From a phage, in the sequence record PX421306.1: a stretch of DNA of 64,000 nucleotides; one strand, written 5' to 3'. A program made the position numbers and the translations under genes. Within the stretch, counting starts at the first letter, position 1. Every line of letters starts with the position of its first letter. The notes under the pieces were generated by a model that saw nothing but the letters and a program-made list of their open reading frames with translations, was not told the DNA's origin and did not search any database. This document shows, one piece after another, positions 3,573 through 62,822 of the stretch.

Positions 3573-4208
3573 TCACAGTTCAGATGCTACGGTGATTACA
3601 GCTTCAATGTTTTCTGCCGAGCGTTTAATGTCAAGATACACATTACCGTTTTTAGCGATTTTACATGACATTCCGATATCAGTAAATTTCTGAATATGAT
3701 GTTCCATCATTTTGTATCCAAAAATTCGCATATTTCCATTGTTGTTAATTTCAAAATTACGAATTCCGTGAGTGCGTTTTTCTAAAATAGCAAGATAGTT
3801 ACTACGATAAGTTTCAACCTTTTTAAGAACAAATCCATTTTCATCTAAAAGTTTTAACATGAAGTCTTTATCTTCTTCCATATCAGAAGTAATCTCGCGA
3901 GCTTTACGAGTTGCTCGTTTTTTCAGCAGTTCAGGAGCGTTTTCCTGCGCGTATAAAGTTGCCGCATTTGAAATAATATCCTGAGCTTCACCTGTAATGA
4001 TTAATCCATCACCAGATTTCTCTACCAGGCCTTTTTTAATCAATACCCCAATATTACTATTAACTACTGCATTACCTAAATCTGGATGCACCTCACGAAC
4101 TTCTGCAGCTGTAATGAAATCTTTCTTAGCAATGGTAATTAAAATCGCAGCAGTTTTTTCATTCAGAACATCGTTAGAAGCTTTGATGATGTAAGTTACT
4201 TTAGACAT
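3573..4208 (-). CDS. motA: Middle-transcription activator MotA
   Basis: 211 aa MSKVTYIIKASNDVLNEKTAAIL... matches remembered T4 MotA. Confidence 0.95.
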   Translation of the reverse strand: MSKVTYIIKASNDVLNEKTAAILITIAKKDFITAAEVREVHPDLGNAVVNSNIGVLIKKGLVEKSGDGLIITGEAQDIISNAATLYAQENAPELLKKRATRKAREITSDMEEDKDFMLKLLDENGFVLKKVETYRSNYLAILEKRTHGIRNFEINNNGNMRIFGYKMMEHHIQKFTDIGMSCKIAKNGNVYLDIKRSAENIEAVITVASEL

Positions 4209-4244
4209 TTTCTAATCTCCGTAATTCTGTATCAGTAGTTGATA

Positions 4245-4285
4245 GTTGTATAGTACCACAGTATGCTTTGGTTGTAAACCGTTTT
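4245..4285 (-). promoter_or_regulatory. Early-type promoter upstream of motA
   Basis: Minus strand GTTTAC (plus 4274-4279), 18-bp spacer, GTGG + TACTAT (plus 4250-4255); conserved leader shared with other copies. Confidence 0.6.
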
Positions 4286-4304
4286 GTGAAAAAAAAAAAT
4301 TTTG

Positions 4305-4334
4305 AAATAAAAAAGGGAGAGCCGAGGCTCTCCC
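4305..4334 (-). terminator. Intrinsic terminator hairpin
   Basis: gggagagccgaggctctccc (4315-4334) preceded on plus by an A-run, giving a U-tract on the minus-strand RNA. Confidence 0.7.
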
Positions 4335-4340
4335 TAAAAT

Positions 4341-6199: not shown

Positions 6200-6654
6200 T
6201 AATATGCCTGCAAAACAAATTTAAAATTATCAGCCAACATACGGTTCATTTCTTCAAGTGTTTGATACTCAGAATGATGATTACGAGTAAACGCCAAAGC
6301 TAACTGACCCTTTCCAAATCCCGTCGTCAGAGGTTTCATCTTAGAAGCAGGCAAATAAAATACTGTATATGGAACATTGTTATTTGCAATAGTACGCGCA
6401 AGCTGAGATCGACGCTGGCGAATATGACTTAGAACTGCACTGAATCCTTGCTTAGAACGCTGATTACCTACATAAAATCGTGCAGATACACACGGATTAT
6501 CAAATGGACCGCCAAATTTGCTCACTAAAAAGTAAAATCCAGGGTTAGACAAAATGTCTTTATGCGGAGTTCCAAAAACCCATTCACCACCCTTGATTGT
6601 ACCAATAACAGTTGCGCCTGCATTATTCAGATCAGTAACAGTCATGTATTTCAT
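6199..6654 (-). CDS. ndd: Nucleoid disruption protein Ndd
   Basis: 151 aa from internal [21 protein letters not shown]... with SD GAGGAAATTAAT; matches remembered T4 Ndd. Confidence 0.9.
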
Positions 6655-6938: not shown

Positions 6939-7049
6939 TCAAGGAGTATAAAATCCAAATGCGGTTGTTGACCATCCCATCCAATATGGGAAATTTGCGC
7001 CAATGTAAAACATGAGAATATAAAACCAACCGCTCAGCAAATTCATCAT
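6939..7049 (-). CDS. Small hydrophobic peptide (36 aa)
   Basis: Hand-translated MMNLLSGWFYILMFYIGANFPYWMGWSTTAFGFYTP; start overlaps upstream stop. Confidence 0.4.
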   Translation of the reverse strand: MMNLLSGWFYILMFYIGANFPYWMGWSTTAFGFYTP

Positions 7050-7243
7050 TTTACACCATTCCAAATTGTTTCAACCACAGATTTCAAACCATTTTGGTGA
7101 ATATCCATTCCGACAACTGCCATCAAATAGATTCCAACTACAACTGAACCTAAGGAGAAAATCAGCATGAAAATGAATAAAGCTGGAAAAATATTATCGA
7201 AAAACCATTCCATAAATGTAAAAGCACTACGTTTACGCTTCAT
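7046..7243 (-). CDS. Small membrane protein (65 aa)
   Basis: ORF track trimmed to ATG with SD GAGGAAAAT; hydrophobic core. Confidence 0.6.
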   Translation of the reverse strand: MKRKRSAFTFMEWFFDNIFPALFIFMLIFSLGSVVVGIYLMAVVGMDIHQNGLKSVVETIWNGVK

Positions 7244-7250
7244 ATTTTCC

Positions 7251-7364
7251 TCACATAAATCCAAAGTAAGCGTTTAATACATCAATCATTAAAACGATTG
7301 GGAATATACTCAAAACTACTAGTATTATAACTACATTCCATATAGCTTTAACAATCTTTTTCAT
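7251..7364 (-). CDS. Small membrane peptide (37 aa)
   Basis: Track ORF trimmed to ATG downstream of the promoter; SD GGAGG; MKKIVKAIWNVVIILVVLSIFPIVLMIDVL... Confidence 0.5.
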   Translation of the reverse strand: MKKIVKAIWNVVIILVVLSIFPIVLMIDVLNAYFGFM

Positions 7365-7386
7365 TTTCTGTTCCTCCGTAGTTGAT

Positions 7387-7427
7387 AGGGTAATAATACC
7401 ACAGAGGAACAGTCTTGTAAACAACTT
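7387..7427 (-). promoter_or_regulatory. Early-type promoter
   Basis: Minus GTTTAC (plus 7417-7422), 18 bp, GTGG + TATTAT (plus 7393-7398). Confidence 0.55.
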
Positions 7428-7606
7428 TTTAAAAATATTCGTAATAAATGTGAATACCAATCACTACTGCCGAAACTTGCGCAACCCACCACGCACAAGC
7501 AATAAGTACAGAATTAAAAATTTTCATAATAACCTCATCACAAAAGTAAATGTTAAACAAATTAATGGAATACTAATTAACCAAACGAAACACCACCATA
7601 ATGAAC

Positions 7607-7870
7607 TCATAGTTCAATCTCAACGATTTTCATTTCATTACTATTAATAGCCGCTTTAAGACTATCTGAAAGAATTACATTCCAGTGGTCATTCATATGA
7701 CCATTGACTAAGCGTGTAATTTCTTCGGGAGTTGAAAAATAAGGCGTATCAGACTCCCAGTGCGATAGTCCCAAGCGAGTATAAATCATACCTTCATCAT
7801 CGCTAGAATATTCAACTGACACAAACTCATCAGTTATTTTATGTTTAGCGTAATAAAATTTAAATTTCAT
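7607..7870 (-). CDS. Hypothetical protein (87 aa)
   Basis: ORF track; ATG confirmed. Confidence 0.7.
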   Translation of the reverse strand: MKFKFYYAKHKITDEFVSVEYSSDDEGMIYTRLGLSHWESDTPYFSTPEEITRLVNGHMNDHWNVILSDSLKAAINSNEMKIVEIEL

Positions 7871-7876
7871 TTTTAC

Positions 7877-8083
7877 TCAATAATCCGCTAAAAGATCGAC
7901 GATTGCATCACGAAGACACTTATTCGCAATACGTTTAAGAGCAATTTCAGTTTCTGGAGCATTTTGAATAATCATTGAATTCAATTCAGCCTCAGCAAAC
8001 TGAAGTTCTTTAACTAATTCAGCTTTATATTTTCCTTGCCCTTTCTTAGCTTTTGCTCGTTTTAATTCAGCTGTAGTAAACAT
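7877..8083 (-). CDS. Hypothetical protein (68 aa)
   Basis: Track ORF trimmed to ATG after conserved leader GGAGAATAAAATG; the N-terminal extension is promoter sequence. Confidence 0.6.
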   Translation of the reverse strand: MFTTAELKRAKAKKGQGKYKAELVKELQFAEAELNSMIIQNAPETEIALKRIANKCLRDAIVDLLADY

Positions 8084-8111
8084 TTTATTCTCCAAATCCG
8101 TATCAGTTGAT

Positions 8112-8152
8112 AGTTGTATAGTACCACAGTCCTTGTGGTATGTAAACCGTTT
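8112..8152 (-). promoter_or_regulatory. Early-type promoter (cassette copy)
   Basis: Minus GTTTAC (plus 8142-8147), 18 bp, GTGG + TACTAT (plus 8118-8123), then conserved leader. Confidence 0.6.
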
Positions 8153-8163
8153 TGTGAAAATTT

Positions 8164-8721
8164 TTAAATGGAAAGATACCATCCGTTGTAGTTGCTTTTT
8201 CTTACAACCTTACGAAGGTCTTCTCTATCACCGATGAACTTCGGAGTGTACTGGATGACACCTGGATGAATTTCTTTAGTGTTGAATATAATTATACAGT
8301 CAGCGACCTGATGATTCAGAATGGGCCCTAGATTTATTCCAGAACCGTATGGATACTCCCCGCTGCATCCGGTTGTTACCGAAATCCAACGTGAGTCAGT
8401 TTGATGTGTTTTGACTTCTACACGAAGCCCACAGTATTTTGGATGCGCCAATACATCCCATGCGTATGTATACGGGTCATTAACATCCTCTTGGCCTTTG
8501 TTAACATACCCGCTTAGCCAATCTGCTACAAAAAACTCTGCGTACACAGCGATACGACATCTTTCAATAACTTCTGCTTTATCCTGGTTCGGGTTTTGTT
8601 TTAGAGAGTATCTTGCTGTATCAGCAATTTTGACCTTCATTTCACTAGTCAAGTCACTGTTCGATAGGGTAAATGTCGGAATCTGAAATAGTCTCTGTAA
8701 ACCTGGATTCGTTTTCTGCAT
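8164..8721 (-). CDS. denB: Endonuclease IV DenB
   Basis: 185 aa; length and position (next to rIIB) match T4 denB. Confidence 0.85.
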   Translation of the reverse strand: MQKTNPGLQRLFQIPTFTLSNSDLTSEMKVKIADTARYSLKQNPNQDKAEVIERCRIAVYAEFFVADWLSGYVNKGQEDVNDPYTYAWDVLAHPKYCGLRVEVKTHQTDSRWISVTTGCSGEYPYGSGINLGPILNHQVADCIIIFNTKEIHPGVIQYTPKFIGDREDLRKVVRKSNYNGWYLSI

Positions 8722-8775
8722 TAAACTTTCCTTTTACGTCGGAATCACTGATATTCATATAATAAATCATAGTTT

Positions 8776-8803
8776 CCCTTAAAACAAAAGGGCCGAAGCC
8801 CTT
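8776..8803 (-). terminator. Terminator hairpin with CGAA/UUCG loop
   Basis: aaagggccgaagcccttt (8786-8803) with flanking plus-strand A-run. Confidence 0.65.
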
Positions 8804-8807
8804 TATT

Positions 8808-9002
8808 TTATTTGAATTGTGCAATTCTTTTCTCTAAACAATCTGCGTAAGATTTCATTGAGATGAATTGTGAAAGCAGTAATTCTTGCTCAACTTCATT
8901 AATCGTTATAAACTTTGTGCTTTCTAAAAATTTGCTCAGCGCATTAATTTTGAGCATTAATTGATCGTATTCTTCTTTTACTCGTGCTTGATAACCTAAC
9001 AT
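8808..9002 (-). CDS. Hypothetical protein (64 aa)
   Basis: ORF track; ATG confirmed; SD AAGGAAAATT. Confidence 0.65.
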   Translation of the reverse strand: MLGYQARVKEEYDQLMLKINALSKFLESTKFITINEVEQELLLSQFISMKSYADCLEKRIAQFK

Positions 9003-9016
9003 AATTTTCCTTAGTT

Positions 9017-9032
9017 AAGGGCCGAAGCCCTT
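9017..9032 (-). other. Stable stem-loop overlapping rIIB stop (no U-tract)
   Basis: aagggccgaagccctt; followed on the minus strand by the SD of the next gene. Confidence 0.5.
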
Positions 9033-9969
9033 ATTTAAATTGTTCAGTAACGTCTTCAACTACTTCGTATTGGCAGGTACGCATTTTAGCATCGTTGTAA
9101 TCAATCGGAATTGATACTACATCGCGAGGATGTACTTTAACTTTTACAACTCGACTGGTTGAACTACCAAAGTGACGAATATAAGATTTAGAACACACAT
9201 GCAGACCACGAGAACAAGTTTGTGTATCATCGTCATTTACACGAGTACGTGGCATTTTAACTACTTTACCAGGACTGTTATCAAATGTATTTGAGTGACA
9301 GTCAAAGTAATTGCTGCGAACTACTTTCCAAGCATAGAAGTAGCCGTCTTCTGTAATTTCAATATCGTTTGCTACCAAGAAATCAAAGAGTCGAGATACC
9401 GCTTTTTGGCTTGGGTTTTCCAGCAGATTTTCCAAGAACGGAAAATAAAATTCAAAGTTTTCGCCTTTTTCCATCGAATCGAGAATACGATCAACTAAAC
9501 CAGACCGCAATTCAATGTTTTGATAGAACAAGCTTCCACCTTCAATTCGAACATCACCGGAAATATATTTTTCAACAGCGCGACGAACGTTAATTTTTTG
9601 TGCTGCTTCTTCCAATTTATCTGCAACAAGCAGGTTAAGAATTTCCTGGAAGTTTGAATGAGTATTAGGAGTTGCGTTATAAGTTACGCCGTCAACAGTA
9701 ATTGAAATGAATTTTTTAGATGCATTCCAAATAATGTCAGATTTAGCAACTGGAGCAATAACTGCATCACTCTTAACTTCAACTGTAATGTCACCGCTAA
9801 TAGTAACTTTGGAGCGTTTAGCTTCTTCAGCATTTTTCAAAACACGACGGATGGTGTCAACCGATACATCTTTCCAATAAGCCAATTCCTGTTGGGTATA
9901 ATTACCGCTTGAATACAGTTTAACAATTTCAGCTTGTTCGTTTTTGGTCAGGCATTTAATATTGTACAT
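9031..9969 (-). CDS. rIIB: rIIB membrane-associated protein
   Basis: 312 aa MYNIKCLTKNEQAEIVKLY...; matches remembered T4 rIIB. Confidence 0.95.
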   Translation of the reverse strand: MYNIKCLTKNEQAEIVKLYSSGNYTQQELAYWKDVSVDTIRRVLKNAEEAKRSKVTISGDITVEVKSDAVIAPVAKSDIIWNASKKFISITVDGVTYNATPNTHSNFQEILNLLVADKLEEAAQKINVRRAVEKYISGDVRIEGGSLFYQNIELRSGLVDRILDSMEKGENFEFYFPFLENLLENPSQKAVSRLFDFLVANDIEITEDGYFYAWKVVRSNYFDCHSNTFDNSPGKVVKMPRTRVNDDDTQTCSRGLHVCSKSYIRHFGSSTSRVVKVKVHPRDVVSIPIDYNDAKMRTCQYEVVEDVTEQFK

Positions 9970-12391: not shown

Positions 12392-12432
12392 CAATTAATT
12401 ATACCACATCCTTGTGGTAAAGTAAACTACTG
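12392..12432 (-). promoter_or_regulatory. Early promoter for the rIIA operon
   Basis: Minus GTTTAC (plus 12422-12427), 18 bp, GTGG + TATAAT (plus 12398-12403). Confidence 0.7.
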
Positions 12433-14244
12433 GCTCATCCATTCTTTACGAAGGTCAGCATTATCTCCCATGAGCATTTCAAAAAGCTCTTTCCAATTCT
12501 CAGGAAGTTTAACAACATCATATACTGGATTTTGAATCATCTCACGATATTCAGATTTTTCCAAAGAGCCAAGTCCCTTAATATAACGGATGCTATGTTT
12601 AGGTAGAGCATCTTTGGCACTCTCATATTCAGCGACTGTATAAAACCATTCTTGTTTTTTACCGACCTGAGCGATGATTACAGGAGTTTTGACAAAGCGA
12701 ATTCTTCCTTGTTCAAACAGTTCTGGCCAATTACTAAAAAATCCGAGCAGAGAAGGATAAATGCTTCCTAGACCATCATGGTCAGCGTCAGTCATAATGG
12801 CAATATTATGATAATTTAAGTTTTCAGCCTTTTCACCAAGAACTAATCCAGTGATTGCGCAAATATCAAACAGTTCTTTATTTTTAAGCATATCAGCATA
12901 TGACATACCCCAACTGTTGAGAACTTTACCACGCAATGGATAACCGCCATGAAGTTCTTTATCACGAACATCAATAAGATATCCGATAGCAGAATCACCC
13001 TCAGTCAAGAAAAGAGTAGTATCAGCATCTTTACCGCAAAGATTCGCTTTAATATGTTTATGAACCTTAGCTTTAGAAGCCTTTTTAGCTGCTTTAGTTT
13101 CTGCTGCTTTTTCTGCCGCCAATTTACGAGCCAAGGCAGCTTCAATGATTGGCATTAAAATTGCTTCATTATTCAAAATAGCACGTGAAATCTTTTTAGC
13201 ATCAAGCTGAATATGACTGCGGATTTCACCGAATGGAGAAGTCAAACGCTCTTTAGTTTGAGAATCAAATCGCATGTTTTTCATATCACGAACAAACATA
13301 ACGATAGTCAAACATTCTTTAACACGTGCTTTAGTTACATCAATTTTGAATTTACGTTTGATTTGTGGAATAAGGTCTTCACAAATATCATCCATAACAC
13401 AGTCAATGTGATGACCACCATTCTTAGTATGAATGTTATTGACGTACGTTAATTGACGAAAACCATCTGGCGAACGACCAACCGCAATAGAACAATTTTC
13501 TTGTTCTTGAACAATAGCATGCTCATCATATTGACGTGCATATTTCTTAAAATTACCCTGAACCTTTTTACCATTAAAGGTAAATTGAATATCAGGATAA
13601 ACTACTGCAAGTGTCTGGAGACGATCCAGTGTAATGTCAAGATAAACTTGAGATAGCTCATTAGTTTCAAATGACATAAAATCAGGAATGAAAGTAACAC
13701 GTGTTCCTTTCCATTTTCCAGGAATAGTTTCCCATGATTTATTTTCCATGCCATTTGAACAACGAACCACAATATTATTTTGACCGTCGCCAGTTTCACC
13801 GACAAACATCACCGAAAAAATGTTAGTTAAACTAGAACCAACACCATTCATACCGCCAGTGACGCGTTCTTTGTCATCACCGAAGTTACCACCTGCTTTT
13901 GGAATAGTCCAGGCAGCAACAGGACCAGGAATTTCTTCACCAGTAGGTGTTTTAACCATCGCTTGTGGAATACCACGACCGTTATCTTCAACTGTTACTT
14001 GATTGTTTTTAATAGTAACATTAATTTTATTCGCGAATTTAAACTTAGTACGAATACCTTCATCTACTGAGTTATCAATAATTTCATCAATAAGCTTAAC
14101 AAGACCAGGTACATACTGAACACTTTCCCATTTACCAAACAGAAAGCGCTCATGCATTTCATTAGCAGAAGAACCAATGTACATGCCGCTACGCTTTTTG
14201 ATATGTTCAATATCGCTCAGAATTTTAATTTCATTCTTAATCAT
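12427..14244 (-). CDS. 39: DNA topoisomerase II large (ATPase) subunit gp39, uninterrupted
   Basis: 605 aa from ATG (track start is an upstream GTG); GyrB-like; covers what T4 splits into gene 39 plus gene 60. Confidence 0.95.
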   Translation of the reverse strand: MIKNEIKILSDIEHIKKRSGMYIGSSANEMHERFLFGKWESVQYVPGLVKLIDEIIDNSVDEGIRTKFKFANKINVTIKNNQVTVEDNGRGIPQAMVKTPTGEEIPGPVAAWTIPKAGGNFGDDKERVTGGMNGVGSSLTNIFSVMFVGETGDGQNNIVVRCSNGMENKSWETIPGKWKGTRVTFIPDFMSFETNELSQVYLDITLDRLQTLAVVYPDIQFTFNGKKVQGNFKKYARQYDEHAIVQEQENCSIAVGRSPDGFRQLTYVNNIHTKNGGHHIDCVMDDICEDLIPQIKRKFKIDVTKARVKECLTIVMFVRDMKNMRFDSQTKERLTSPFGEIRSHIQLDAKKISRAILNNEAILMPIIEAALARKLAAEKAAETKAAKKASKAKVHKHIKANLCGKDADTTLFLTEGDSAIGYLIDVRDKELHGGYPLRGKVLNSWGMSYADMLKNKELFDICAITGLVLGEKAENLNYHNIAIMTDADHDGLGSIYPSLLGFFSNWPELFEQGRIRFVKTPVIIAQVGKKQEWFYTVAEYESAKDALPKHSIRYIKGLGSLEKSEYREMIQNPVYDVVKLPENWKELFEMLMGDNADLRKEWMSQ

Positions 14245-14296
14245 CACTTATCCTCGTTTGGTTTCGGGAATATTATACTCCGGTAATCATAAAGCT

Positions 14297-15779: not shown

Positions 15780-16049
15780 TTAATTGAACAGTGGAGCAAT
15801 GCGTTTCAGAAGAGTAGCAGCACCTTTGGCAAATTTTACATCATGAAAAACAGTTTCTTCTTCCGTTACAACACGAACTTTAATGTTTTCACAATCCCAA
15901 TTTTTGCGAACAATCTTCAAAAGCTGCAGTAAATCTTTACATTCAGCAATATCGATAACACATCCACGAGAATCTTCCATTATCGCACGATAACCATAAG
16001 CCATACCATAATCGTTGAAAGATTGTTCGATGATAATTAAGTTTTCCAT
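15780..16049 (-). CDS. Hypothetical protein (89 aa)
   Basis: Trimmed to ATG after conserved leader TTGGAGAATAAAATG. Confidence 0.7.
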   Translation of the reverse strand: MENLIIIEQSFNDYGMAYGYRAIMEDSRGCVIDIAECKDLLQLLKIVRKNWDCENIKVRVVTEEETVFHDVKFAKGAATLLKRIAPLFN

Positions 16050-16156
16050 TTTATTCTCCAAGTTGTTTTCTGTATCAGTAGTTGATATTGATATAGTACC
16101 ATAATCAACTACTGATGTATATAGTTTTATGAAAAAATTTTAAACTTTATGCAAAT

Positions 16157-16576
16157 TTATGCTAAAGCTGCTTCGCACCATTTTTTAATTTGGAATTCAG
16201 GAACTACCATGAACTGGCCTGCAAAAACAATATTGTAGAGCTTGACGCCATCTTCTACCCAACGGTCCGAAATAAAACCAGCGACTTGATTCGTTGTCCA
16301 TGGAGTTCCATCTGTTGCCGCCGCAATTGTGAATTTATGGTCTTTTACAACTAAAACTGAAGAACAAAGTTTCCATTTAAATGCGCTTTCTTCTGGCTCA
16401 ATGAATTGGCTTGAGACATAACCAATGTTACCATCAGCGTCACGAACTTTAACCTCGTTACGACCAAAAACTGGATCACTTACAGAAAGAACTTCAACCA
16501 GCTTTCCTGCAACTTTAGAACGAGAAGCAACGGATACATATACGTAATCACCAGTAGAGAGATTTACAATATTCAT
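16157..16576 (-). CDS. Hypothetical protein (139 aa), tandem paralog A
   Basis: Shares SRSK.AGKLVE, FKW.LC and GFI.D.W.EDG.KLYNIVF motifs with the neighbouring 159-aa ORF. Confidence 0.8.
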   Translation of the reverse strand: MNIVNLSTGDYVYVSVASRSKVAGKLVEVLSVSDPVFGRNEVKVRDADGNIGYVSSQFIEPEESAFKWKLCSSVLVVKDHKFTIAAATDGTPWTTNQVAGFISDRWVEDGVKLYNIVFAGQFMVVPEFQIKKWCEAALA

Positions 16577-16585
16577 AATAATTCC

Positions 16586-17065
16586 TTAAGCTTTACGAGG
16601 AGAAGCATAACGAGTGATTTCAGATTCTTCAACAACCCGGAAGTCACCTAAAAATACAATATTGTATAGCTTTTTACCGTCTTCAATCCATTGGTCTGTA
16701 ATGAAGCCACACATCCTATCAGTTTTACTTGGACCAGCGAAATCATCAATATAATCAAATTTTTCATCAGTTACAAATTCAACGCCTTTACACAACTGCC
16801 ATTTAAACTGTGCATTAGACTTAGTGGATTCAATTCCTTTAGCAGGAACAGCTTTCAAAAACGCAGATTCAAGAAATTTTGCACGAACATAGCCAAACTG
16901 AGGTTTAGACTTTCCATCTTTAGGAATGATACGCACTTTTACTTCAGAATCTTCATCTTTAACACCGTGTTTAAGCTGAATGCTTACAATTTCAACCAAT
17001 TTTCCTGCTGCTTTAGAACGGGATTTATCAGATACACGAGCAATTTCACCAATATTAATAATCAT
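16586..17065 (-). CDS. Hypothetical protein (159 aa), tandem paralog B (motB position)
   Basis: Paralog of 16157-16576; ATG confirmed. Confidence 0.8.
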   Translation of the reverse strand: MIINIGEIARVSDKSRSKAAGKLVEIVSIQLKHGVKDEDSEVKVRIIPKDGKSKPQFGYVRAKFLESAFLKAVPAKGIESTKSNAQFKWQLCKGVEFVTDEKFDYIDDFAGPSKTDRMCGFITDQWIEDGKKLYNIVFLGDFRVVEESEITRYASPRKA

Positions 17066-17144: not shown

Positions 17145-17234
17145 ATTCAAAATAGCTACCACTGCACTACGAGGTACTACGCTAAAATCACCTGCATGAA
17201 CAACGTTCAGAAGTTCAACACGATAAATTTTCAT
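17142..17234 (-). CDS. Small ORF (30 aa) between two promoters
   Basis: Hand-translated MKIYRVELLNVVHAGDFSVVPRSAVVAILN; SD GAGGATAAT. Confidence 0.3.
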   Translation of the reverse strand: MKIYRVELLNVVHAGDFSVVPRSAVVAILN

Positions 17235-17255
17235 TTTATTATCCTCAGTAGCTAT

Positions 17256-17296
17256 GGTGTTATAATACCATAACTAACCGAGGAAGTAAACAACTT
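17256..17296 (-). promoter_or_regulatory. Early promoter
   Basis: Minus GTTTAC (plus 17286-17291), 18 bp, TATTAT (plus 17262-17267). Confidence 0.6.
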
Positions 17297-27664: not shown

Positions 27665-27957
27665 TATTCACCTACCACTTCAGCGACGATATTTTTATTA
27701 TTAAAGTTTTTATCGCAATATAGAACATAATTATACTGCATTACACCACCAGACTTAAGCTGTTTTTGCACTTCAGCTTTCATTTCAGGACGATCACGCT
27801 CAACGATATTCATAATATCTGCTTCAATTTGAGTTTCAACTTCAGTCTGATCTGCAGTCATAGACCATTCACACAAGTCTTTATCATAACCTGCCATAGC
27901 AGGCTGAGCAGCGCAAGAAGATAAAGCAAAAATTGCAGCAAAGATAAATTTTTTCAT
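27664..27957 (-). CDS. sp: Spackle periplasmic protein (superinfection exclusion, gp5 lysozyme inhibitor)
   Basis: 97 aa with signal peptide MKKFIFAAIFALSSCAAQPAMA; matches remembered T4 Sp. Confidence 0.9.
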   Translation of the reverse strand: MKKFIFAAIFALSSCAAQPAMAGYDKDLCEWSMTADQTEVETQIEADIMNIVERDRPEMKAEVQKQLKSGGVMQYNYVLYCDKNFNNKNIVAEVVGE

Positions 27958-28060
27958 GATAATCTCCTCAGTAGTTTATGTTTATAGTATCTCAATTTTC
28001 AACAAAAGTAAACACTAGTAGAAGCAAACAGACAAATTGCAATAATTGGTGATTTCAGTT

Positions 28061-28243
28061 TCATTCTTCTCCTCCTTCATGTTGATGAACATATTCTTTT
28101 TCAAGTCTAGAGCACAAGTTTTCATATTCAACTAATAAAAATGAATCAAGTGCGTTATTTCTATGCTGACACCGTTCTTGTAAAGAATCCATCTCTGAGC
28201 GTTGTTCTTGTGTTAATAATTGATAACCTGATACTTTAGACAT
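28061..28243 (-). CDS. Hypothetical protein (60 aa), 61.4 position
   Basis: Track ORF trimmed to second ATG with SD GGAGAACAAA. Confidence 0.6.
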   Translation of the reverse strand: MSKVSGYQLLTQEQRSEMDSLQERCQHRNNALDSFLLVEYENLCSRLEKEYVHQHEGGEE

Positions 28244-28273
28244 TTTGTTCTCCATTTACTCGTTTGTTTTGAT

Positions 28274-28314
28274 AGGTCTATAATAACATGTTTAAAACAA
28301 AAGTAAACTATTTT
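28274..28314 (-). promoter_or_regulatory. Early promoter
   Basis: Minus GTTTAC (plus 28303-28308), 17 bp, TATTAT (plus 28280-28285). Confidence 0.55.
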
Positions 28315-28353
28315 ATTTCCTCAAGTTCGTTAATCAATAAAAGTTCTCTGACG

Positions 28354-28563
28354 CTAAAAACAAAAAAAAAATGTGTTCCCATCAACAAGAGCATGACCGC
28401 TAATAGAACACCCTCTGCGGAATTTAGAAACTTCACAATCTAGAACTGTAAAGGGTTTTAATCCTATGACTTTAGCTGTGCGTCTATTCAGTTCACAACC
28501 ACTCGCGAATTTTTCCAAATCTTCTTCTGATTTAAACTGATATTCTCTATTAACTAGCATCAT
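28354..28563 (-). CDS. Hypothetical protein (69 aa)
   Basis: ORF track; ATG confirmed. Confidence 0.65.
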   Translation of the reverse strand: MMLVNREYQFKSEEDLEKFASGCELNRRTAKVIGLKPFTVLDCEVSKFRRGCSISGHALVDGNTFFFCF

Positions 28564-28588
28564 TTTCTTTTCTCCGCGATTAGCTGAT

Positions 28589-28629
28589 AGAATTACTATA
28601 ACACAACTCTATCAGCTTGTAAACTACTA
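28589..28629 (-). promoter_or_regulatory. Early promoter
   Basis: Minus GTTTACAAGCTGA (plus 28619-28624), 18 bp, TATAGT (plus 28595-28600). Confidence 0.6.
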
Positions 28630-30908: not shown

Positions 30909-32082
30909 TAAATTCTTCCATATCACTTAACTGATCTAGGTCAGTTTCTAAATCAGCTGCTGATTTACTTTTACTTTCTGGAGATTTAAATTTTTCAACC
31001 TTTGAGTTAATCAATTCATCAACTTCAGCTTCAACAATTTCATTACTATCAATAGCACCTAACTGATAAGCGCGTTTAATAGCATCTCGGAATGGTTGAT
31101 GCTTAAATAAAGGACCCCAGAATGTAGTGCAATTGGTATCTTTTGCACGCCAAGATTTTTCTTCGCGAATCATCTCGCCGGTTTCTTCATCAAGAAATTC
31201 ACGAGCATACCAACCATTTTTAGGTTTTACTACAAATCCTAATTCAAGAGCCATATCTAACAATCCGGAATAAGGATCGATGCCACCGTCAAATTTAACA
31301 TCAATAAAGAATTTACTTTTTTCTTTAACGGTACGAGATTTTTCTACATTTAGAACAAATTGATACCCCTGAAGATCAGAACCATCTTTAATCTGGCGCT
31401 TACCGATAATGAATACAGTATCAGCCGAATACATTACGCCTGTACCACCTGTCATCACGGTTTTACTAAACATTTCAATTGTTTCAATTGTATGGTTAAC
31501 CGCAACGCACGGAATGTTTTTAATACTAAAATAAGGAGTAACAATACGGAATAATGACTTCAGTGATTTAGCACGAGTCATATCTGCCACGGATTTTTCA
31601 TTCAAGGCATCTTCCGTTTCTTTCTTAGAAGCCATATTACCGATTGAGTCGATGAATACAATAACTTTTTCACCACGCTCAATAGCTTCAAGCTGATTCA
31701 CCATATCAATTTTCAGCTGTTCAACTGACTGAATTGGCGTATGAATTACTCGTTCCGGGTCAACTCCCATGGATCGCAAATAAGCTGGAGTAATACCAAA
31801 TTCGCTATCATAGAATAAACAAACCGCATCAGGATATTTGTTCAAATACGCCGCAACCATAGTCAAAGACATATTTGATTTAAAGTGTTTAGAAGGACCT
31901 GCAAAAATAGTTAAACCAGACTGCATACCACCATCAATCGCGCCGGAAATAGCGATATTGAGCATTGGAATTTTTGTACGGATTACATCCTTTTCATTAA
32001 AGAATTTAGATGTAGTCAGTTCAGCAGTCATTTTAGAAGTGGAAGCTTTAATCAAACGGGATTTTAAATCTGCAATAGACAT
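30901..32082 (-). CDS. uvsX: UvsX recombinase (RecA-like)
   Basis: 393 aa; matches remembered T4 UvsX across its length. Confidence 0.95.
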   Translation of the reverse strand: MSIADLKSRLIKASTSKMTAELTTSKFFNEKDVIRTKIPMLNIAISGAIDGGMQSGLTIFAGPSKHFKSNMSLTMVAAYLNKYPDAVCLFYDSEFGITPAYLRSMGVDPERVIHTPIQSVEQLKIDMVNQLEAIERGEKVIVFIDSIGNMASKKETEDALNEKSVADMTRAKSLKSLFRIVTPYFSIKNIPCVAVNHTIETIEMFSKTVMTGGTGVMYSADTVFIIGKRQIKDGSDLQGYQFVLNVEKSRTVKEKSKFFIDVKFDGGIDPYSGLLDMALELGFVVKPKNGWYAREFLDEETGEMIREEKSWRAKDTNCTTFWGPLFKHQPFRDAIKRAYQLGAIDSNEIVEAEVDELINSKVEKFKSPESKSKSAADLETDLDQLSDMEEFNE

Positions 32083-32159
32083 TCATTTTTTCCATAGGCA
32101 TCATCATATTTTCCTCACTGGTTAAAGATAGAGTAATTATAACACAATAAATTTAGGCA

Positions 32160-33002
32160 TTAATCAACTGCTATTGGATGAATAGCATTAAACTTATGAA
32201 ACGCTTCTGATTTTTCTTTGCGCGAAACACACATGCGAAGAACCTTTAATGGCTCGTCTTCTTCACCCAACGATTTTCGTTTTTCAATATTAGAAGTTTT
32301 CCAACGAGCTTGCTCTGGAAACTCTTTATTGATTTGCTCAAGAGCTCTATTATGTTTTGAATTACTACGAATTGAACTACATCCGCCTGGAGCTTGTGCT
32401 TTTCCAGACACAACCAGATATTTGAACAAAGCCAAATGCGGATAACCTTGGTTAATTAAATTGAGAAATGCATACATATCTTCACATAAATCAATTTTTC
32501 CATACCCAATTTGTTCTGTAGTAAGTTTTCCGAGGTCATACCATGTATTCGTGAATCCATATGAATTTTCACGATAATTACCCCAAGATGAAGTAATTTT
32601 AAAAATAGGTAGACGAGCATGACCGTGATAATACCCGCAATCCATGGCATCTTCCACGTATTGAATCAATTCATAGAACTGTTCACGAGTTAACTGATTA
32701 ATTTTATCTACGCAGCGACGATCATCTTTCTTTCGCATTGAACTCATACGAATAGTAGTATCATCATCAATCATCCAAATTCGTTGACCTGCATACATAT
32801 CAGTAATTGCTTTACGAGTTCCAGCAATTCCATTAACATCATCAGGAATAGTTATAATTTTAGCTCTAGACCCGTAAGCGTCATAATAAGCTTTTTCTTC
32901 GTGTTCACGTACTACAATATGAGGTTCATAATCAGTCGGAAACATATCAAGGGCAGAAACTGTCCCTACGCGTTGATAGCTTGGAATTACGAATTGAATC
33001 AT
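32160..33002 (-). CDS. Putative DNA glycosyltransferase (GT-A-like, DDD motif) at the beta-gt locus
   Basis: 280 aa from ATG (track start is an upstream GTG); N-terminal FVIPSYQR and IWMIDDD motif; ATG overlaps gene 42 stop; T4 has a 351-aa beta-gt here. Confidence 0.8.
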   Translation of the reverse strand: MIQFVIPSYQRVGTVSALDMFPTDYEPHIVVREHEEKAYYDAYGSRAKIITIPDDVNGIAGTRKAITDMYAGQRIWMIDDDTTIRMSSMRKKDDRRCVDKINQLTREQFYELIQYVEDAMDCGYYHGHARLPIFKITSSWGNYRENSYGFTNTWYDLGKLTTEQIGYGKIDLCEDMYAFLNLINQGYPHLALFKYLVVSGKAQAPGGCSSIRSNSKHNRALEQINKEFPEQARWKTSNIEKRKSLGEEDEPLKVLRMCVSRKEKSEAFHKFNAIHPIAVD

Positions 33003-33739
33003 TTCCACTCACCGTTATAATCTTTTTTCGCAATATGAGTTTCGCCAGTTTTCCACCAATGGTCAACCAAATAAAAATGACGGGAATACACATGAAGGCT
33101 TCCGACATTCCATATAATGGAACCTGCTTTATACTGACGAGTTGAATCACCTGCATTCAAATCAGATACTAATTTATCTAGTACGTATTTTTGCCATGCA
33201 TAATCATTACGGAATCCGAAGACCACGTCATTTGAACGCATGTTAACCACTGCATTAATTTTCTTATCACGAATCAGATACTGTACTGTATTCGTACACA
33301 TGAAATCTGACATGCCATCTTTATTGTAGTCAAACTGCATGGATGGACGAGTATAAATCATGATACCACGTCGAGAATCAGGATTTTGACCAAGTTCAGC
33401 TAAACACATATCATATTGGGCATAGTTATCTTCTGACCAGATGGCCCAACCATAATTCGAGTTAATTTCGCCTTTAGAAGATGCTACCTGCTGCCAAATC
33501 TTTGGTGTTTCACCTGGAATATCTTTAACAAACAGACTTTGAGACTTATACCATTCAAGTTCACGCTGAATGTATTCATCATTAAGAGCGCCAAAAATAA
33601 AAGGTTCATCTGCTACAAATGATGCACCAATAATTTCAATAGTTTTAACCCCGGTTTTATCAATTACGAAATCTTTTTCCTTTAATGCAAGACCCAAATC
33701 AAGACGGATTTCTTCAACTGTCATATAATCGTTAATCAT
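32999..33739 (-). CDS. 42: dCMP hydroxymethylase gp42
   Basis: 246 aa; thymidylate-synthase-like; length and position match T4 gp42. Confidence 0.95.
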   Translation of the reverse strand: MINDYMTVEEIRLDLGLALKEKDFVIDKTGVKTIEIIGASFVADEPFIFGALNDEYIQRELEWYKSQSLFVKDIPGETPKIWQQVASSKGEINSNYGWAIWSEDNYAQYDMCLAELGQNPDSRRGIMIYTRPSMQFDYNKDGMSDFMCTNTVQYLIRDKKINAVVNMRSNDVVFGFRNDYAWQKYVLDKLVSDLNAGDSTRQYKAGSIIWNVGSLHVYSRHFYLVDHWWKTGETHIAKKDYNGEWK

Positions 33740-34542: not shown

Positions 34543-34779
34543 TCAAATACAAGTAGTAATTACTCCAGTAGTGCTTACACAGGTATTACCTAATTGAACA
34601 CCCAGCGTTCCATTAGTATTCATATGAAGATTATCATCAATTTTTGTTGATACTTTACCATTCATGTGAATAATAGTATTAGATTCAATCACATTCTGAG
34701 TGTCATTTTCAATATCAATAAATGGAACAGTTGCTAATGCAACTAAACACACTGCTAAACAACCATAAACAATTTTCAT
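34543..34779 (-). CDS. Secreted/membrane protein (78 aa)
   Basis: Track ORF trimmed to ATG after conserved leader GGAGAATAAAATG; hydrophobic N-terminus. Confidence 0.65.
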   Translation of the reverse strand: MKIVYGCLAVCLVALATVPFIDIENDTQNVIESNTIIHMNGKVSTKIDDNLHMNTNGTLGVQLGNTCVSTTGVITTCI

Positions 34780-34807
34780 TTTATTCTCCAAATCCGTATC
34801 AGTTGAT

Positions 34808-34848
34808 AGTTGTATAGTATCATGGAAGAACGGGAATGTAAACAGTTT
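34808..34848 (-). promoter_or_regulatory. Early promoter (cassette copy)
   Basis: Minus GTTTAC (plus 34838-34843), 18 bp, TACTAT (plus 34814-34819). Confidence 0.55.
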
Positions 34849-34925
34849 TGTGAAAAAAATTTTTAATGAATTTACAGGACCTAGAATCATCTATTTTTCC
34901 TAAGTATAGATTTATATTACTTGTA

Positions 34926-34948
34926 TGAAAAAGGGACCCGGAGGTCCC
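34926..34948 (-). terminator. Intrinsic terminator downstream of gene 43
   Basis: gggacc-cgga-ggtccc with a plus-strand A-run on the 5' side. Confidence 0.7.
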
Positions 34949-34961
34949 TAGATTTATTCTA

Positions 34962-55823: not shown

Positions 55824-56825
55824 TTACTTAATTAACTGTAAAGCTTGTTCAAGACGATCCAGGCGATTAACAGATTCTTCCCAAATCCTTTTAGCCTGCT
55901 CATATTCTTTCTGCGCTTTATTAGAAATTTCTAGAACTTCTTTATAAGCCTTTTCTAGTGCAATAACTTCTGGACGAATTTCTACAGGTTCAGACGAATC
56001 ATCAAGATTATCCATTAGTTCCTCAAGTGTAATTTCTTCTTTAGGAGTATTCACAATTTCATCACATTTTTGTTGGTAAATTTCTTTATCAGTCGGTGAG
56101 TACGCACATTTCACTTCACGAAGACTAACTACAATTTTATATCCTTCCCAACCGCATATATTCTTAAAAGGATACGTATGAATATTTTCTACTGTTTCCA
56201 TACAAAGTAATGCGGTTTCTAATTGACGAGTTATAGTGCTAGCAATTGAGAAAAATTTATTAATGTTCTTTTGGTTAGTTTCTGGTGTAAAAAATCCATA
56301 ATTCACAAAAATAGATACTTTATTTTTATCAAGTTCATATTCTTTTATGATAATCATATCAGAAGCCAAAGGATGAATTTGACGATAATCGCCATAACAT
56401 AATTTAGAAGCTGATTTTAGAATCTGTCCTTTGAAAAGTCTGAAATTACTAATCCAACGACGAGTAAAAATATTCTCAGGGTCTTCTTTATTATTAAGAT
56501 GATAAGAATTAACATCACCGAACCAATTATATCCTACTACATCTTTGGTTCGTTTAATTTCTTTCCCAAAATTACCAAGAATATCCCGATTAACCAAATA
56601 TGAAAGAAGACGAGACTCTTTAAAGGTTTTCTTGATAAGATCTTTATCTACACGGCTAGAAATTTTACGAATTTCATGAATAAATTTAGTAGAAGAAACA
56701 ATACCTGCATCAACACTATTGAGCCATTGATTGATAATAGAAAGAACGCTATTTTGGCCAAACATCGGTATAGCTTTATCATCAATAACGCTATTGAATG
56801 ATTTGATATATTCGTTACGAGTCAT
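55824..56825 (-). CDS. Coiled-coil family protein 2 (333 aa)
   Basis: Track ORF trimmed to ATG MTRNEYIKSF with SD GAGGAG; motif R.W...FR..K.IL.SASKL; C-terminal coiled-coil tail. Confidence 0.8.
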   Translation of the reverse strand: MTRNEYIKSFNSVIDDKAIPMFGQNSVLSIINQWLNSVDAGIVSSTKFIHEIRKISSRVDKDLIKKTFKESRLLSYLVNRDILGNFGKEIKRTKDVVGYNWFGDVNSYHLNNKEDPENIFTRRWISNFRLFKGQILKSASKLCYGDYRQIHPLASDMIIIKEYELDKNKVSIFVNYGFFTPETNQKNINKFFSIASTITRQLETALLCMETVENIHTYPFKNICGWEGYKIVVSLREVKCAYSPTDKEIYQQKCDEIVNTPKEEITLEELMDNLDDSSEPVEIRPEVIALEKAYKEVLEISNKAQKEYEQAKRIWEESVNRLDRLEQALQLIK

Positions 56826-56847
56826 ATTAATCTCCTCAGTAGAAAGT

Positions 56848-56888
56848 AAGAACATTATACCACATCCTTGTGGCAAAGTAAACTAGTT
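56848..56888 (-). promoter_or_regulatory. Early promoter (near-duplicate of the rIIA promoter)
   Basis: Minus GTTTACTTTGCCACAAGGATGTGGTATAAT (plus 56854-56883), almost identical to 12398-12427. Confidence 0.65.
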
Positions 56889-59271: not shown

Positions 59272-59799
59272 TTATGCGAGTACCGTCTTTAACCGTTCTT
59301 CAAACTTCCGAAGAGTATTTTGGCGTTCAGCTCTTTGCTTTTTGTAAGTTTCAATACGCTCTGAAATGAGAGTGTATCGTTCATTTACTGATTCTTTCAT
59401 AAAATCAGGAATTTCACGAGAAGCTTTAATCTCGTCAAATTTATCAATAACAGCTTGCTCTTCAGCAATTAAGTTATCATACATTAAAATATCTTTCTTG
59501 ATGAACTCAATATCTTCTTGAGTTACACGAGATAATTTAGATGCTTTATCCTTTTTGTACTGTTCGTTAGTATCACGAGACCAGTGTAATGTACGATTTT
59601 TATTCGTATTTTTGTAAATTTCTACAATACCGATCTCATCAATAATAACGATCCAATTCCAACGCGATTTGTAAATTTGTCCTCCATCAACAGTGATTTC
59701 ACCTCCGATTGAGATGTCATTAAAGAACTTGCTTTGTGCTTCAGATTTAAATTTACCATCGTTGTAATTTACCAAGTTGAAAATATCTTTAGCGTTCAT
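59272..59799 (-). CDS. Hypothetical protein (175 aa)
   Basis: ORF track; ATG after conserved leader ...GGAGGAACAGAAAATG. Confidence 0.8.
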   Translation of the reverse strand: MNAKDIFNLVNYNDGKFKSEAQSKFFNDISIGGEITVDGGQIYKSRWNWIVIIDEIGIVEIYKNTNKNRTLHWSRDTNEQYKKDKASKLSRVTQEDIEFIKKDILMYDNLIAEEQAVIDKFDEIKASREIPDFMKESVNERYTLISERIETYKKQRAERQNTLRKFEERLKTVLA

Positions 59800-59821
59800 T
59801 TTCTGTTCCTCCGTAGTTGAT

Positions 59822-59862
59822 AGTTGTATAGTACCACAGAGAAACAGTCTTGTAAACCACTA
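59822..59862 (-). promoter_or_regulatory. Early promoter (cassette copy)
   Basis: Minus GTTTAC (plus 59852-59857), 18 bp, GTGG + TACTAT (plus 59828-59833). Confidence 0.6.
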
Positions 59863-60165
59863 AAAGAAACTTCTTTCACAATTTTTTCCACTGAACCATG
59901 CGCTCACTGCTTTCTTAGTCTCAGGAGCAGTGTTATCCATAAACCATTCAAAGGCAGCCTTTTTATGATTCTGGAGGGCTTCTCGGGCTTTAATCTGCTC
60001 ACGGTCTATTAACACTAACATATGAGCCTTTCTTGTCACCATGGGCTTCTTATGATTTTTTGAATACTCCCAGTCATTTGTCCATCGCATTGTCGTTGCG
60101 AACTGAAATACTGCTTCTTTAATTTTAGTTTCGTAAATTTCACGAGCCTTTGAGTATAACATCAT
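59860..60165 (-). CDS. Hypothetical protein (101 aa)
   Basis: Track ORF trimmed to ATG with SD GGAGGTAATG. Confidence 0.7.
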   Translation of the reverse strand: MMLYSKAREIYETKIKEAVFQFATTMRWTNDWEYSKNHKKPMVTRKAHMLVLIDREQIKAREALQNHKKAAFEWFMDNTAPETKKAVSAWFSGKNCERSFF

Positions 60166-61232: not shown

Positions 61233-61270
61233 TTTATTCTCCAAATCCGTATCAGTTGATAGTTGTATAG

Positions 61271-61311
61271 TACCATAAAGCTTTATGCTTGTAAACAGTT
61301 TTGTGAAAAAA
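61271..61311 (-). promoter_or_regulatory. Early promoter (cassette copy) for the ATPase gene
   Basis: Minus GTTTAC (plus 61301-61306), 18 bp, TACTAT (plus 61277-61282). Confidence 0.6.
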
Positions 61312-61321
61312 TTTTTGAAAT

Positions 61322-61346
61322 AAAAAAAGGGAGCCCGAAGGCTCCC
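61322..61346 (-). terminator. Intrinsic terminator downstream of the nucleotidyltransferase gene
   Basis: gggagcc-cgaa-ggctccc preceded on plus by a 7-nt A-run. Confidence 0.75.
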
Positions 61347-62362: not shown

Positions 62363-62820
62363 TCAGCCTTATATTCAATAACAGGACATACTTTAGCTTT
62401 ACGCGCTTTTAAAAATTCGACGATAATAGATTTCTTTGGTTGAATAGGAGGTAAACCTTTATACGCCCTATCAATATTTTCTACATGTAAAGCATAATCC
62501 TTTTTCCATTTATAATCTTTATATTTTTCATGCAGTTGTGCAGGAATAACAAATGAACCAATAATAAGTAAAACAAGCAAAATAGCAAGTATAAATGCTG
62601 ATGGAATAAGAGTCCATAAACTACCAAAAATAAGCCATTTCTGCATGATTTCTGCGCAGATGATAGTTAGACCTGCGAGTATAGTACATCCGAAAAAAGA
62701 AACGAAAAATGTAGGGATAACAATAGACCAAAAATATGCACACAGTGTCTTAGGTCGTTTCCATTCGTCGTTAAACATTTTGAATAATTTATAGTGCCAA
62801 GAGCTTTCATTAATAATCAT
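62359..62820 (-). CDS. Membrane protein (153 aa, multi-pass)
   Basis: ORF track; several hydrophobic segments; stop overlaps the nucleotidyltransferase start. Confidence 0.8.
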   Translation of the reverse strand: MIINESSWHYKLFKMFNDEWKRPKTLCAYFWSIVIPTFFVSFFGCTILAGLTIICAEIMQKWLIFGSLWTLIPSAFILAILLVLLIIGSFVIPAQLHEKYKDYKWKKDYALHVENIDRAYKGLPPIQPKKSIIVEFLKARKAKVCPVIEYKAE

Positions 62821-62822
62821 AA

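Follow-up and report, generated by a model that had tools for sequence, protein, structure and literature searches.

The closest described counterparts of the repeats analysed here are the promoter-early-stem-loop (PeSL) elements of phages T4 and PST. According to Comeau, Arbiol & Krisch 2014 (PMC4122927), these follow the consensus TTTACW-N17-TAYWAT, carry a Shine-Dalgarno (SD) sequence and an ATG at their 3' end and have variable stem-loops; Figure 6A of that paper contains a T4/PST exchange of ndd.4 and ndd.5, adjoining the denB-site copy treated below. For the PeSLs of RB49 and phi1, Arbiol et al. 2010 (PMC2839356) report mini-circles that were sequenced and had crossed over in the zone from the -10 to the SD or ATG, and a G/C-rich stem-loop that often lies within the promoter; the authors left a targeted recombinase or helper protein possible. 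The same paper summarises Repoila et al. 1994, in which similar motifs were described at T-even internal-protein loci. More generally, T4 early promoters are regarded as "uber" promoters combining UP, -35, TGn and -10 elements in an extended consensus (PMC2988021), and the mechanism of their shut-off has been described as not understood (PMC3014915). For the RegB nuclease acting with ribosomal protein S1, efficient cleavage in T4 requires the 11-nt GGAGAAUAAAA (Durand et al. 2006, PMC1702504); the consensus is GG*AGRAYARAA, and T4 nrdC.8 was reported as "moderately cleaved" (PMC1702504, PMC3014915).

The cassette class, its occurrence in Tequatrovirus and its proposed role are already published, and the window (the whole stretch of 64,000 nt that was analysed) is a clean worked example of the published principle, not a new phenomenon. 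We find in it seven copies that are very probably immediate-early expression cassettes, paralogous to one another, whose elements serve as joints for the exchange of small open reading frames (ORFs).

The phage and comparison with described systems

The window belongs to a Tequatrovirus, a T4-like phage. Positions 7000-9500 matched 641 phage records, mostly Tequatrovirus; Escherichia phage vB_EcoM_G50 (G50) is 98.5% identical over this interval, and four short segments of 90-604 nt, compared with Shigella phage SH-1, are 99.7-100% identical to it. The T4 gene order is kept (gp38, t, asiA, motA, 52, ndd, denB, rIIB, rIIA, 39 ... nrdC.11). Early genes and every repeat copy are on the minus strand, with the copies in direct orientation. 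Promoter annotation was looked for in the T4 RefSeq and GenBank records, and none was found in them.

With the T4/PST PeSLs the copies share the genus, the promoter consensus, an A/T-rich upstream tract, the SD and ATG, and a location in hyperplastic early regions linked to indels. The original prediction of portable promoter and ribosome-binding-site cassettes of the PeSL kind is borne out by the match to this published consensus and by joints that lie at cassette elements. Two features differ: only two to three of the seven copies have a clear upstream stem-loop, and most joints use repeats of 8-13 nt rather than whole cassettes. The accessible text of the T4/PST paper (PMC4122927) makes no mention of the family leader ACAACTATCAACT... 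The RB49/phi1 cassettes likewise combine promoter, SD and ATG and flank small ORFans, and their crossover zone corresponds to the SD-ATG joints found here; they come from a different genus, however, with near-perfect sigma-70 promoters (TTGACA/TATAAT) and non-homologous sequences.

Among the T4 early promoters (e.g., PmotA), those of motA, ndd.4, nrdC.8 and nrdC.10 are orthologous to copies in the window, with 0-2 differences in the 18-nt spacer, but the leader accompanies only about half of early-type promoters, so that the family is a paralogous sub-family and not the whole class. The T-even ipI-III motifs also consist of early-promoter elements flanking variable small genes, for which shuffling has been proposed, but those loci lie outside the window. 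Like integron cassettes and lambdoid "morons", small accessory ORFs here move with or beside their own expression signals; unlike in integrons, no integrase was noticed in the T4 and G50 annotations of the region, there is neither attC nor a fixed crossover point, and exchange seems to proceed by general phage recombination on short repeats. The promoters of the family are not covered by the DksA paper.

Anatomy of the cassette family

Blocks of 75-90 nt, running from an A/T-rich upstream element to the start codon, precede the seven minus-strand starts at 4208, 7364, 8083, 16049, 34779, 59799 and 61232 of the 64 kb (Table 1). These are the starts for which a near-identical block had been predicted, and all seven carry it, far above chance: TTTAC-N16-19-TACTAT has six matches in the window against 0.21 expected, and the PeSL consensus TTTACW-N17-TAYWAT has 16 against 0.36 expected, all 16 on the minus strand. 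The latter is matched exactly by six of the seven copies, the exception being the one at 16049. The -10 is preceded by TGG or TGA, and the upstream 30 nt are 72-84% A+T in the seven copies. A distance of 24-37 nt separates the promoters from the downstream ATGs of motA, ndd.4, nrdC.8, nrdC.10 and the small ORFs. Read on the minus strand, the denB-site cassette is TTTAAAAATTTTCACAAAACG-GTTTAC-ATACCACAAGGACTGTGG-TACTAT-ACAACTATCAACTGATACGGATTTGGAGAATAAAATG.

Directly after the -10 follows the 13-mer ACAACTATCAACT, exact in five of the seven copies. The start-site block contains TATCA-N(2/5)-TGATA, an imperfect palindrome. As anticipated, two leader variants recur: GGATTTGGAGAATAAAATG is exact in three copies, with a further copy showing three mismatches, and CGGAGGAACAGAAAATG is exact in two. 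Pairwise identity between copies, from upstream block to ATG, is 57-88%; those at 8083, 34779 and 61232 are identical at 43/43 nt from TACTAT to ATG. The uniform block originally described does not extend to the copies at 7364 and 59799, an 84% identical pair with a common spacer and leader that is without TTTTCACAAAAC, and the 16049 copy has TATACA instead of TTTACA. The 7364 copy has leader variant 2, ...CTATCAACTACGGAGGAACAGAAAATG, while the 16049 leader is 6-9 nt longer and terminates in GGAGAATAAAATG. The leaders at 34779 and 61232 are the same as that at 8083, and the 34779 cassette drives imm.1 itself in T4.

Table 1. Positions of the cassettes, their elements and associated ORFs in the window.
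Feature	Position	Strand	Remarks
denB-site cassette	8081-8170	(-)	entire denB-ORF68 intergenic gap; denB stop 8164-8166
A/T tract and TTTTCACAAAAC block of denB-site cassette	8149-8160	(-)	
-35 GTTTAC of denB-site cassette	8142-8147	(-)	
Extended -10 TGG of denB-site cassette	8124-8126	(-)	
-10 TACTAT of denB-site cassette	8118-8123	(-)	
Start-site block ACAACTATCAACT of denB-site cassette	8105-8117	(-)	probable +1 = A at 8111
Leader segment GATACGGATTT of denB-site cassette	8094-8104	(-)	
SD and RegB/S1 consensus GGAGAATAAAA of denB-site cassette	8083-8093	(-)	
ATG of ORF68	8081-8083	(-)	
ORF68 (68 aa)	7877-8083	(-)	phrog_4535; behind 8083 cassette
ORF87 (87 aa)	7607-7870	(-)	phrog_2390; downstream of ORF68
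motA cassette	4206-4335	(-)	TTTTCACAAAAC 4281-4292; -35 4274-4279; -10 4250-4255
motA cassette leader		(-)	ACAACTATCAACTACTGATACAGAATTACGGAGATTAGAAAATG
motA cassette terminator hairpin	4314-4335	(-)	T-run, then A/T-rich upstream tract
Cassette of ndd.4-like 37-aa membrane ORF (start 7364)	7362-7438	(-)	-35 7417-7422; -10 TATTAT 7393-7398
motB/cef cassette (start 16049)	16042-16153	(-)	-35 TATACA 16117-16122; -10 16093-16098
89-aa ORF	15780-16049	(-)	phrog_3720; behind 16049 cassette
sp site: related early promoter, other leader family	27955-28618	(-)	
sp-site nested promoter-bounded ORF modules (n = 2)	28015-28618	(-)	missing from T4
Cassette of 78-aa ORF (start 34779)	34777-34870	(-)	-35 34838-34843; -10 34814-34819
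Hairpin upstream of 34779 copy	34932-34949	(-)	~75 nt upstream of -35
78-aa ORF	34543-34779	(-)	phrog_4189; between cassette and imm.1
nrdC.8 cassette (start 59799)	59797-59871	(-)	-35 59852-59857; -10 59828-59833; leader variant 2
nrdC.10 cassette (start 61232)	61230-61346	(-)	TTTTCACAAAAC 61298-61309; -35 61291-61296; -10 61267-61272
nrdC.10 cassette terminator hairpin	61329-61346	(-)	T-run follows

The sharing reaches well beyond the -35 and -10 hexamers, the only common elements had the copies been ordinary early promoters. Counting the window and T4 together, the long leader is present in 17 family members and absent from 16 other early-type promoters, whose common feature is no more than a weak Y-A-T at and beside the probable +1. 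Leader conservation is therefore specific to the family and not part of a generic early-promoter consensus. The cassette occurs in 545 phage records at 2773 places, or about five per genome.

Strong hairpins followed by a T-run are located directly upstream of two of the seven copies, those of motA and nrdC.10, and a third lies further above the 34779 copy; no convincing hairpin was found upstream of the copies at 7364, 8083, 16049 and 59799. The proposed stem-loop is thus retained as an upstream element in only two to three of the seven copies, and is not found in the leaders, which are unstructured (see below).

Relationship between the copies

T4 carries family cassettes at motA, ndd.4, ndd.6, imm.1, nrdC.8, nrdC.10, the motB/cef gap and e.8. 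Incomplete versions (CTATCAACT, with TACC or AGAC replacing ACAA) are present at ~73.6 kb, upstream of trna.4, and at ~65.4 kb, between ipII and denV. To compare mosaic structure, four parts of each cassette were treated separately: the upstream block, the spacer, the start-site block and the leader. The spacer AAGACTGTTC..TGG is common to ndd.4, nrdC.8 and T4 imm.1, whose upstream blocks and leaders differ, and at least four spacers unrelated to one another are found next to the upstream block TTTTCACAAAAC. Spacers of paralogues are alike at 17-18 of 18 positions, in mosaic combinations. To our knowledge, promoter spacers are under no sequence requirement, and their mosaic likeness is therefore attributed to common descent and exchange between copies. 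Judged from these sequences, the likeness points to the seven copies being paralogues rather than convergent look-alikes. Spacers of the window and their T4 orthologues show 0-2 differences over the 18 positions, except at the imm.1 site (5 of 18).

It is very unlikely that strong early promoters and ribosome sites merely converged under functional constraint, with neither common descent nor a role in recombination. Convergence would fit the extended consensus known for T4 early promoters (PMC2988021), the coincidence of the SD part with a functional RegB/S1 site (PMC1702504) and the divergence of orthologous spacers at about the genome-wide rate. It is largely refuted, however, by the 17-18 of 18 identical spacer positions in mosaic combinations among paralogues, while the 16 other early-type promoters work without the family leader, and indel joints fall exactly on cassette elements, the denB site showing all four ORF combinations. 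The presence or absence of one ACT in the leader was considered as a sign of gene conversion between paralogues and found uninformative, since (ACT)2 to (ACT)1 is an easy slippage.

Leader RNA and the predicted RegB/S1 site

Nine versions of the leader were folded, and minimum free energies (MFE) and z-scores calculated. The leader alone has an MFE of 0 to −0.6 kcal/mol, and over the nine versions folded the values are 0 to −4.7 kcal/mol; with z-scores of 0.01 to 1.38, the folds are no more stable than those of shuffled sequence. A TATCA..TGATA hairpin, the candidate for a structured leader RNA, was rejected: it reaches only −0.6 kcal/mol and is lost without ACT and in leader variant 2. An Rfam scan of the whole window gave no match at gathering thresholds. 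The leaders are thus predicted to be unstructured, and the RegB/S1 motif in them would hence be single-stranded.

This motif is the last part of the cassette. The segment GGAGAATAAAA matches the RegB/S1 consensus at 11/11 positions in the copies at 8083, 16049, 34779 and 61232, its last base being the A of the start codon. The motA copy, with GGAGATTAGAA, matches at 10/11 positions, and leader variant 2 (7364 and 59799) at 8/11 only; its T4 orthologue, nrdC.8, is the gene with the moderate cleavage cited above. GGAGRAYARAA has five matches in the window against 0.42 expected, and all five are at minus-strand translation starts. As in the known RegB/S1 targets, the site lies where early genes initiate translation, in a stretch without stable structure; it takes up no more than the terminal 11-13 nt of the cassette. 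The regB gene itself is outside the window; 502 phage records contain it at ≥95% nucleotide identity, and their spread of hosts is that of the cassette. The consensus match is not mentioned in the accessible text of the PeSL papers (PMC4122927, PMC2839356). The original prediction noted the conserved ribosome-binding site, and its RegB/S1 match is an addition to it.

A structured cis-regulatory RNA in the leader, or a site there for a regulator such as an early-promoter shut-off factor, is highly improbable. The RNA version is countered by the lack of a stable fold (0 to −0.6 kcal/mol, z ≥ 0) and of an Rfam match in the window. A regulator site would explain why ACAACTATCAACT, present in five of the seven window copies, shows no change among the eight orthologues of the denB-site copy that were sampled (8/8), and why the nrdC.10 cassette keeps 94% identity over 102 nt in another genus, in Citrobacter phage CF1 (a phage grouping with Moon), with flanking genes at 68-74%; the palindrome, and the description of early-promoter shut-off as not understood (PMC3014915), would also suit it. 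Yet one palindrome arm is missing from leader variant 2, the spacing shifts by 3 nt between orthologues, and half of the early-type promoters do without the block.

Because the block is invariant in the sampled orthologues and 94% conserved across genera with ~70% flanks, we considered whether ACAACT/ATCAACT(AC)TGATAC might be the recognition site of a phage factor, beyond its promoter context, and regard this as very unlikely. If it were true, candidates for the factor would come from the early-promoter shut-off mechanism, or would include a helper protein targeting recombination to the cassettes. The segment ACAACTATCAACT(AC)TGATAC is the only place in the cassettes where something new might hide.

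Recombination joints

The window was compared with T4 and G50 by BLASTN, and junctions were further inspected in 20 other phage loci. The alignment to T4 has 16 internal homology gaps, of which five edges abut cassettes: 8077-8081 (at the ATG), 16042 (ATG+5), 16153 (upstream edge), 34772 (ATG+5) and 28014, which is the -35 of the sp promoter. The breakpoints that the comparison of flanking ORFs with other T-even genomes was expected to reveal thus fall on cassette elements at these five edges. The 16049 cassette forms a 112-nt island of 98% identity to T4, with non-homologous DNA on either side. In T4, G50 and the 20 other loci, indel and replacement joints are located at cassette elements, either the SD-ATG stretch or the -35 GTTTAC.

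Short direct repeats are found at the joints: AATAAAATG / AATGAAATG, GAGTAAAAATG, ATGAAAAT / ATGAAAAT, GGAAAA / GTAAAA and, at the sp site, GTTTACTTTTGTT / GTTTACTTTTGTT. At the four junctions examined in detail, the repeat is 8-13 nt long in three and ~5 nt in one. Efficient homologous recombination in T4 is usually quoted to need ~50 bp. As the repeats are far shorter, the events may be microhomology deletions beside a promoter retained by selection, and not exchanges from cassette to cassette.

The denB site illustrates the independence of the ORFs. Its states were determined in 16 phage loci, including eight sampled genomes inspected directly; counts from BLAST of junction 70-mers (~500 genomes) were not used, as pieces up to ~535 nt apart are joined in them and insertion states merged. 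All four combinations of ORF68 and ORF87 occur across the 16 loci, with every joint at SD-ATG. Both ORFs are present in this window, G50 and slur13; ORF87 only in Elenatom, HP3, Shfl2, KMB22 and four IMG/VR loci; ORF68 only in Sa45lw, Kelasse and N2; and neither in T4, where an 8-codon remnant of ORF87 is kept. The presence of one ORF is independent of that of the other.

Other sites vary in the same manner. The sp site holds no module in T4, one in Shfl2 and two in this window, with joints at the -35 hexamer GTTTAC; the downstream module is flanked by the 13-nt repeats GTTTACTTTTGTT (28001-28013 and 28296-28308). Depending on the genome, the cassette at the imm.1 site is followed by imm.1 itself or by the 78-aa ORF, and that at the nrdC.10 site by nrdC.10 itself or by an extra 59-aa ORF. 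In IMG/VR, cassettes with a closely related long leader, which probably represent the e.8 site, are followed by an 87-aa ORF or by a 13-codon stub, and differing ORFs stand downstream of the same cassette in IMG/VR genomes. In STML-198, the crossover is within the spacer.

Finding at least two breakpoint edges in the 12-nt ATG zone has P = 6e-4 against randomly placed cassettes; a third edge is 11 nt from its ATG. Against random gene starts, the fairer null, the probability is ~0.06, a binomial estimate (3/16 upstream edges on 7/~125 cassette genes) that is marginal. More weight than these breakpoint statistics is carried by independent events that recur, in many genomes, at the same joints.

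The general recombination of T4 is very active, which speaks against a dedicated integron-like site-specific system capturing ORFs, in our view an extremely improbable explanation: two short motifs, SD-ATG and GTTTAC, do appear again and again at the joints, and the targeted recombinase or helper protein left possible for RB49/phi1 would fit, but the crossover varies (-35, the spacer in STML-198, SD-ATG, internal A-rich runs), the repeats amount to no more than imperfect microhomology, and a non-systematic look at the T4 and G50 annotations of the homologous region noticed no integrase-like gene.

Proposed function of the cassettes

The repeat family, its mosaic structure, the unstructured leader, the agreement with the RegB consensus and the places where the joints lie are direct observations; for promoter activity, the position of +1, the pathway of recombination and cleavage by RegB in this phage, we extrapolate from the T4 literature. 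Transposing it to the cassettes, each would be a very strong sigma-70 early promoter, with an A/T-rich UP-like tract, a -35 GTTTACA, a 17-bp spacer, TGn and a -10 TACTAT. Transcription would probably start at the A of ATCAACT, a position suggested by the spacing and by the A at position 7 after the -10, giving an unstructured 5'UTR of 24-37 nt. At its 3' end, a GGAG Shine-Dalgarno sits within the sequence recognised by RegB/S1, which four copies have as GGAGAAUAAAA. The ORF behind the cassette would be transcribed immediately by the unmodified host RNA polymerase and translated efficiently, and its mRNA inactivated within minutes when RegB, aided by S1, cuts between GG and AG. Small ORF modules would be inserted, deleted or swapped at the conserved elements by the general recombination machinery of the phage, chiefly at two joints: the A-rich stretch of the SD-ATG, and the -35 GTTTAC together with adjacent bases.

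Arranged in this way, the cassettes would provide a newly acquired small gene with a programme in one step: immediate-early transcription, efficient translation and a shut-off timed by RegB. They may explain the high variability of accessory early regions between phages that are otherwise 95% identical. For annotation, they flag immediate-early accessory genes, often candidates for host takeover or anti-defence functions, and likely recombination joints.

Genes behind the cassettes

The ORFs behind the cassettes had been considered the likeliest recent acquisitions. This fits the 68- and 87-aa, 89-aa and 78-aa ORFs, which vary among close relatives, but not motA, ndd.4, nrdC.8 and nrdC.10; these four genes are behind the same cassettes in T4 and are therefore not recent acquisitions. 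The cassette marks where acquisition can occur, not that the downstream gene is recent. The motA product is the essential activator of middle transcription. The gene downstream of the 61232 copy, nrdC.10, is a P-loop NTPase-like ORF with AAA/P-loop matches that are all sub-threshold.

The small variable ORFs belong to PHROG families without an assigned function; 118 phage records contain ORF68 and 319 contain ORF78. In T4 and G50, 200 nt of the 89-aa ORF have been lost directly after ATGGAAAA, leaving a frameshifted remnant. The 78-aa ORF has a hydrophobic, signal-like N-terminus; it is missing from T4 and G50, with the joints in the 8-nt repeat ATGAAAAT. The site of this ORF, that of imm.1, where an ORF has been gained or lost, is also the one with the divergent spacer.

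Families of promoter-leader repeats

Downstream of early promoters other than those of the main cassette family (the repeated T4-type early promoter, leader and SD-ATG), a second recurrent leader, ...CTACTGAGGA(G/T)A(T)TAA.. ATG, was found. The promoter-leader repeats thus belong to more than one family. Three early promoters of the window also have in common a palindromic spacer, CCACAAGGA(C/T)TGTGG, between the -35 and -10 elements, and their T4 orthologues contain the same palindromic spacers.

Coordinates of the features discussed
Feature	Location	Strand	Content or context
Early promoters with palindromic spacer	window 8118-8146, 12398-12426, 56854-56882	(-)	
Second leader family, sp, nrdC.5 and dexA-region sites	window 27955-28013, 56825-56882, 17233-17290	(-)	
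Two nested promoter-bounded modules	window 28015-28618	(-)	between 61.4 and sp; 69-aa goF-like ORF; 60-aa ORF
T4 remnant 1, 8-codon ORF	T4 166993-167019 (L003 8494-8520)		MKIAEIEL, the ORF87 tail
T4 remnant 2, frameshifted stub of 89-aa ORF	T4, L029 about 6496-6560		between motB and cef
Extra 139-aa ORF	window 16157-16576	(-)	within non-homologous stretch 16154-16828
Topoisomerase II large subunit, one 606-aa ORF	window 12427-14247	(-)	

Modules and remnants behind the promoters

Neither of the nested modules at the sp site is present in T4, and only the first, containing the goF-like ORF, is present in Shfl2. The complete 604-nt stretch occurs in only 17 phage records; whole or partial matches occur in 87, most of which apparently contain just the first 323 nt. 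Inspection of the junction sequences revealed unannotated ORF remnants behind two of the cassettes in T4, one derived from ORF87, one of the two small variable ORFs at the denB site, and the other a frameshifted stub that G50 also has. Upstream of the 16049 cassette, which precedes the 89-aa ORF, window segment 16154-16828 (-) is non-homologous to T4 and G50, and the divergent 3' part of motB lies inside it.

In the Citrobacter phage CF1, which belongs to a different genus, the nrdC.10 cassette (L005 5867-5968; the 61232 copy in the window) is 94% identical, the flanking genes being 68-74% identical, and an additional 59-aa ORF comes after the cassette. In the Salmonella phage STML-198, the cassette is reduced to its 3' half, from the spacer to the ATG, without GTTTAC (L010 1067-1085).

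Gene 39 and segments without T4 homology

In the homology comparison with T4, nothing in the window corresponds to T4 segment 2794-3910. In T4 this segment covers the upstream portion of gene 60, including the translational-bypass gap, as well as gene 60.1, mobA and the gene 39 3' end. As this segment is missing and the topoisomerase large subunit is encoded by a single ORF, gene 39 is unsplit in this phage. Two further window segments lack T4 homology: 32071-33016, in the beta-gt/segA region, matches G50, in which a beta-glucosyl-HMC-alpha-glucosyltransferase is annotated at that place, and 62364-63325 stands in place of mobD.
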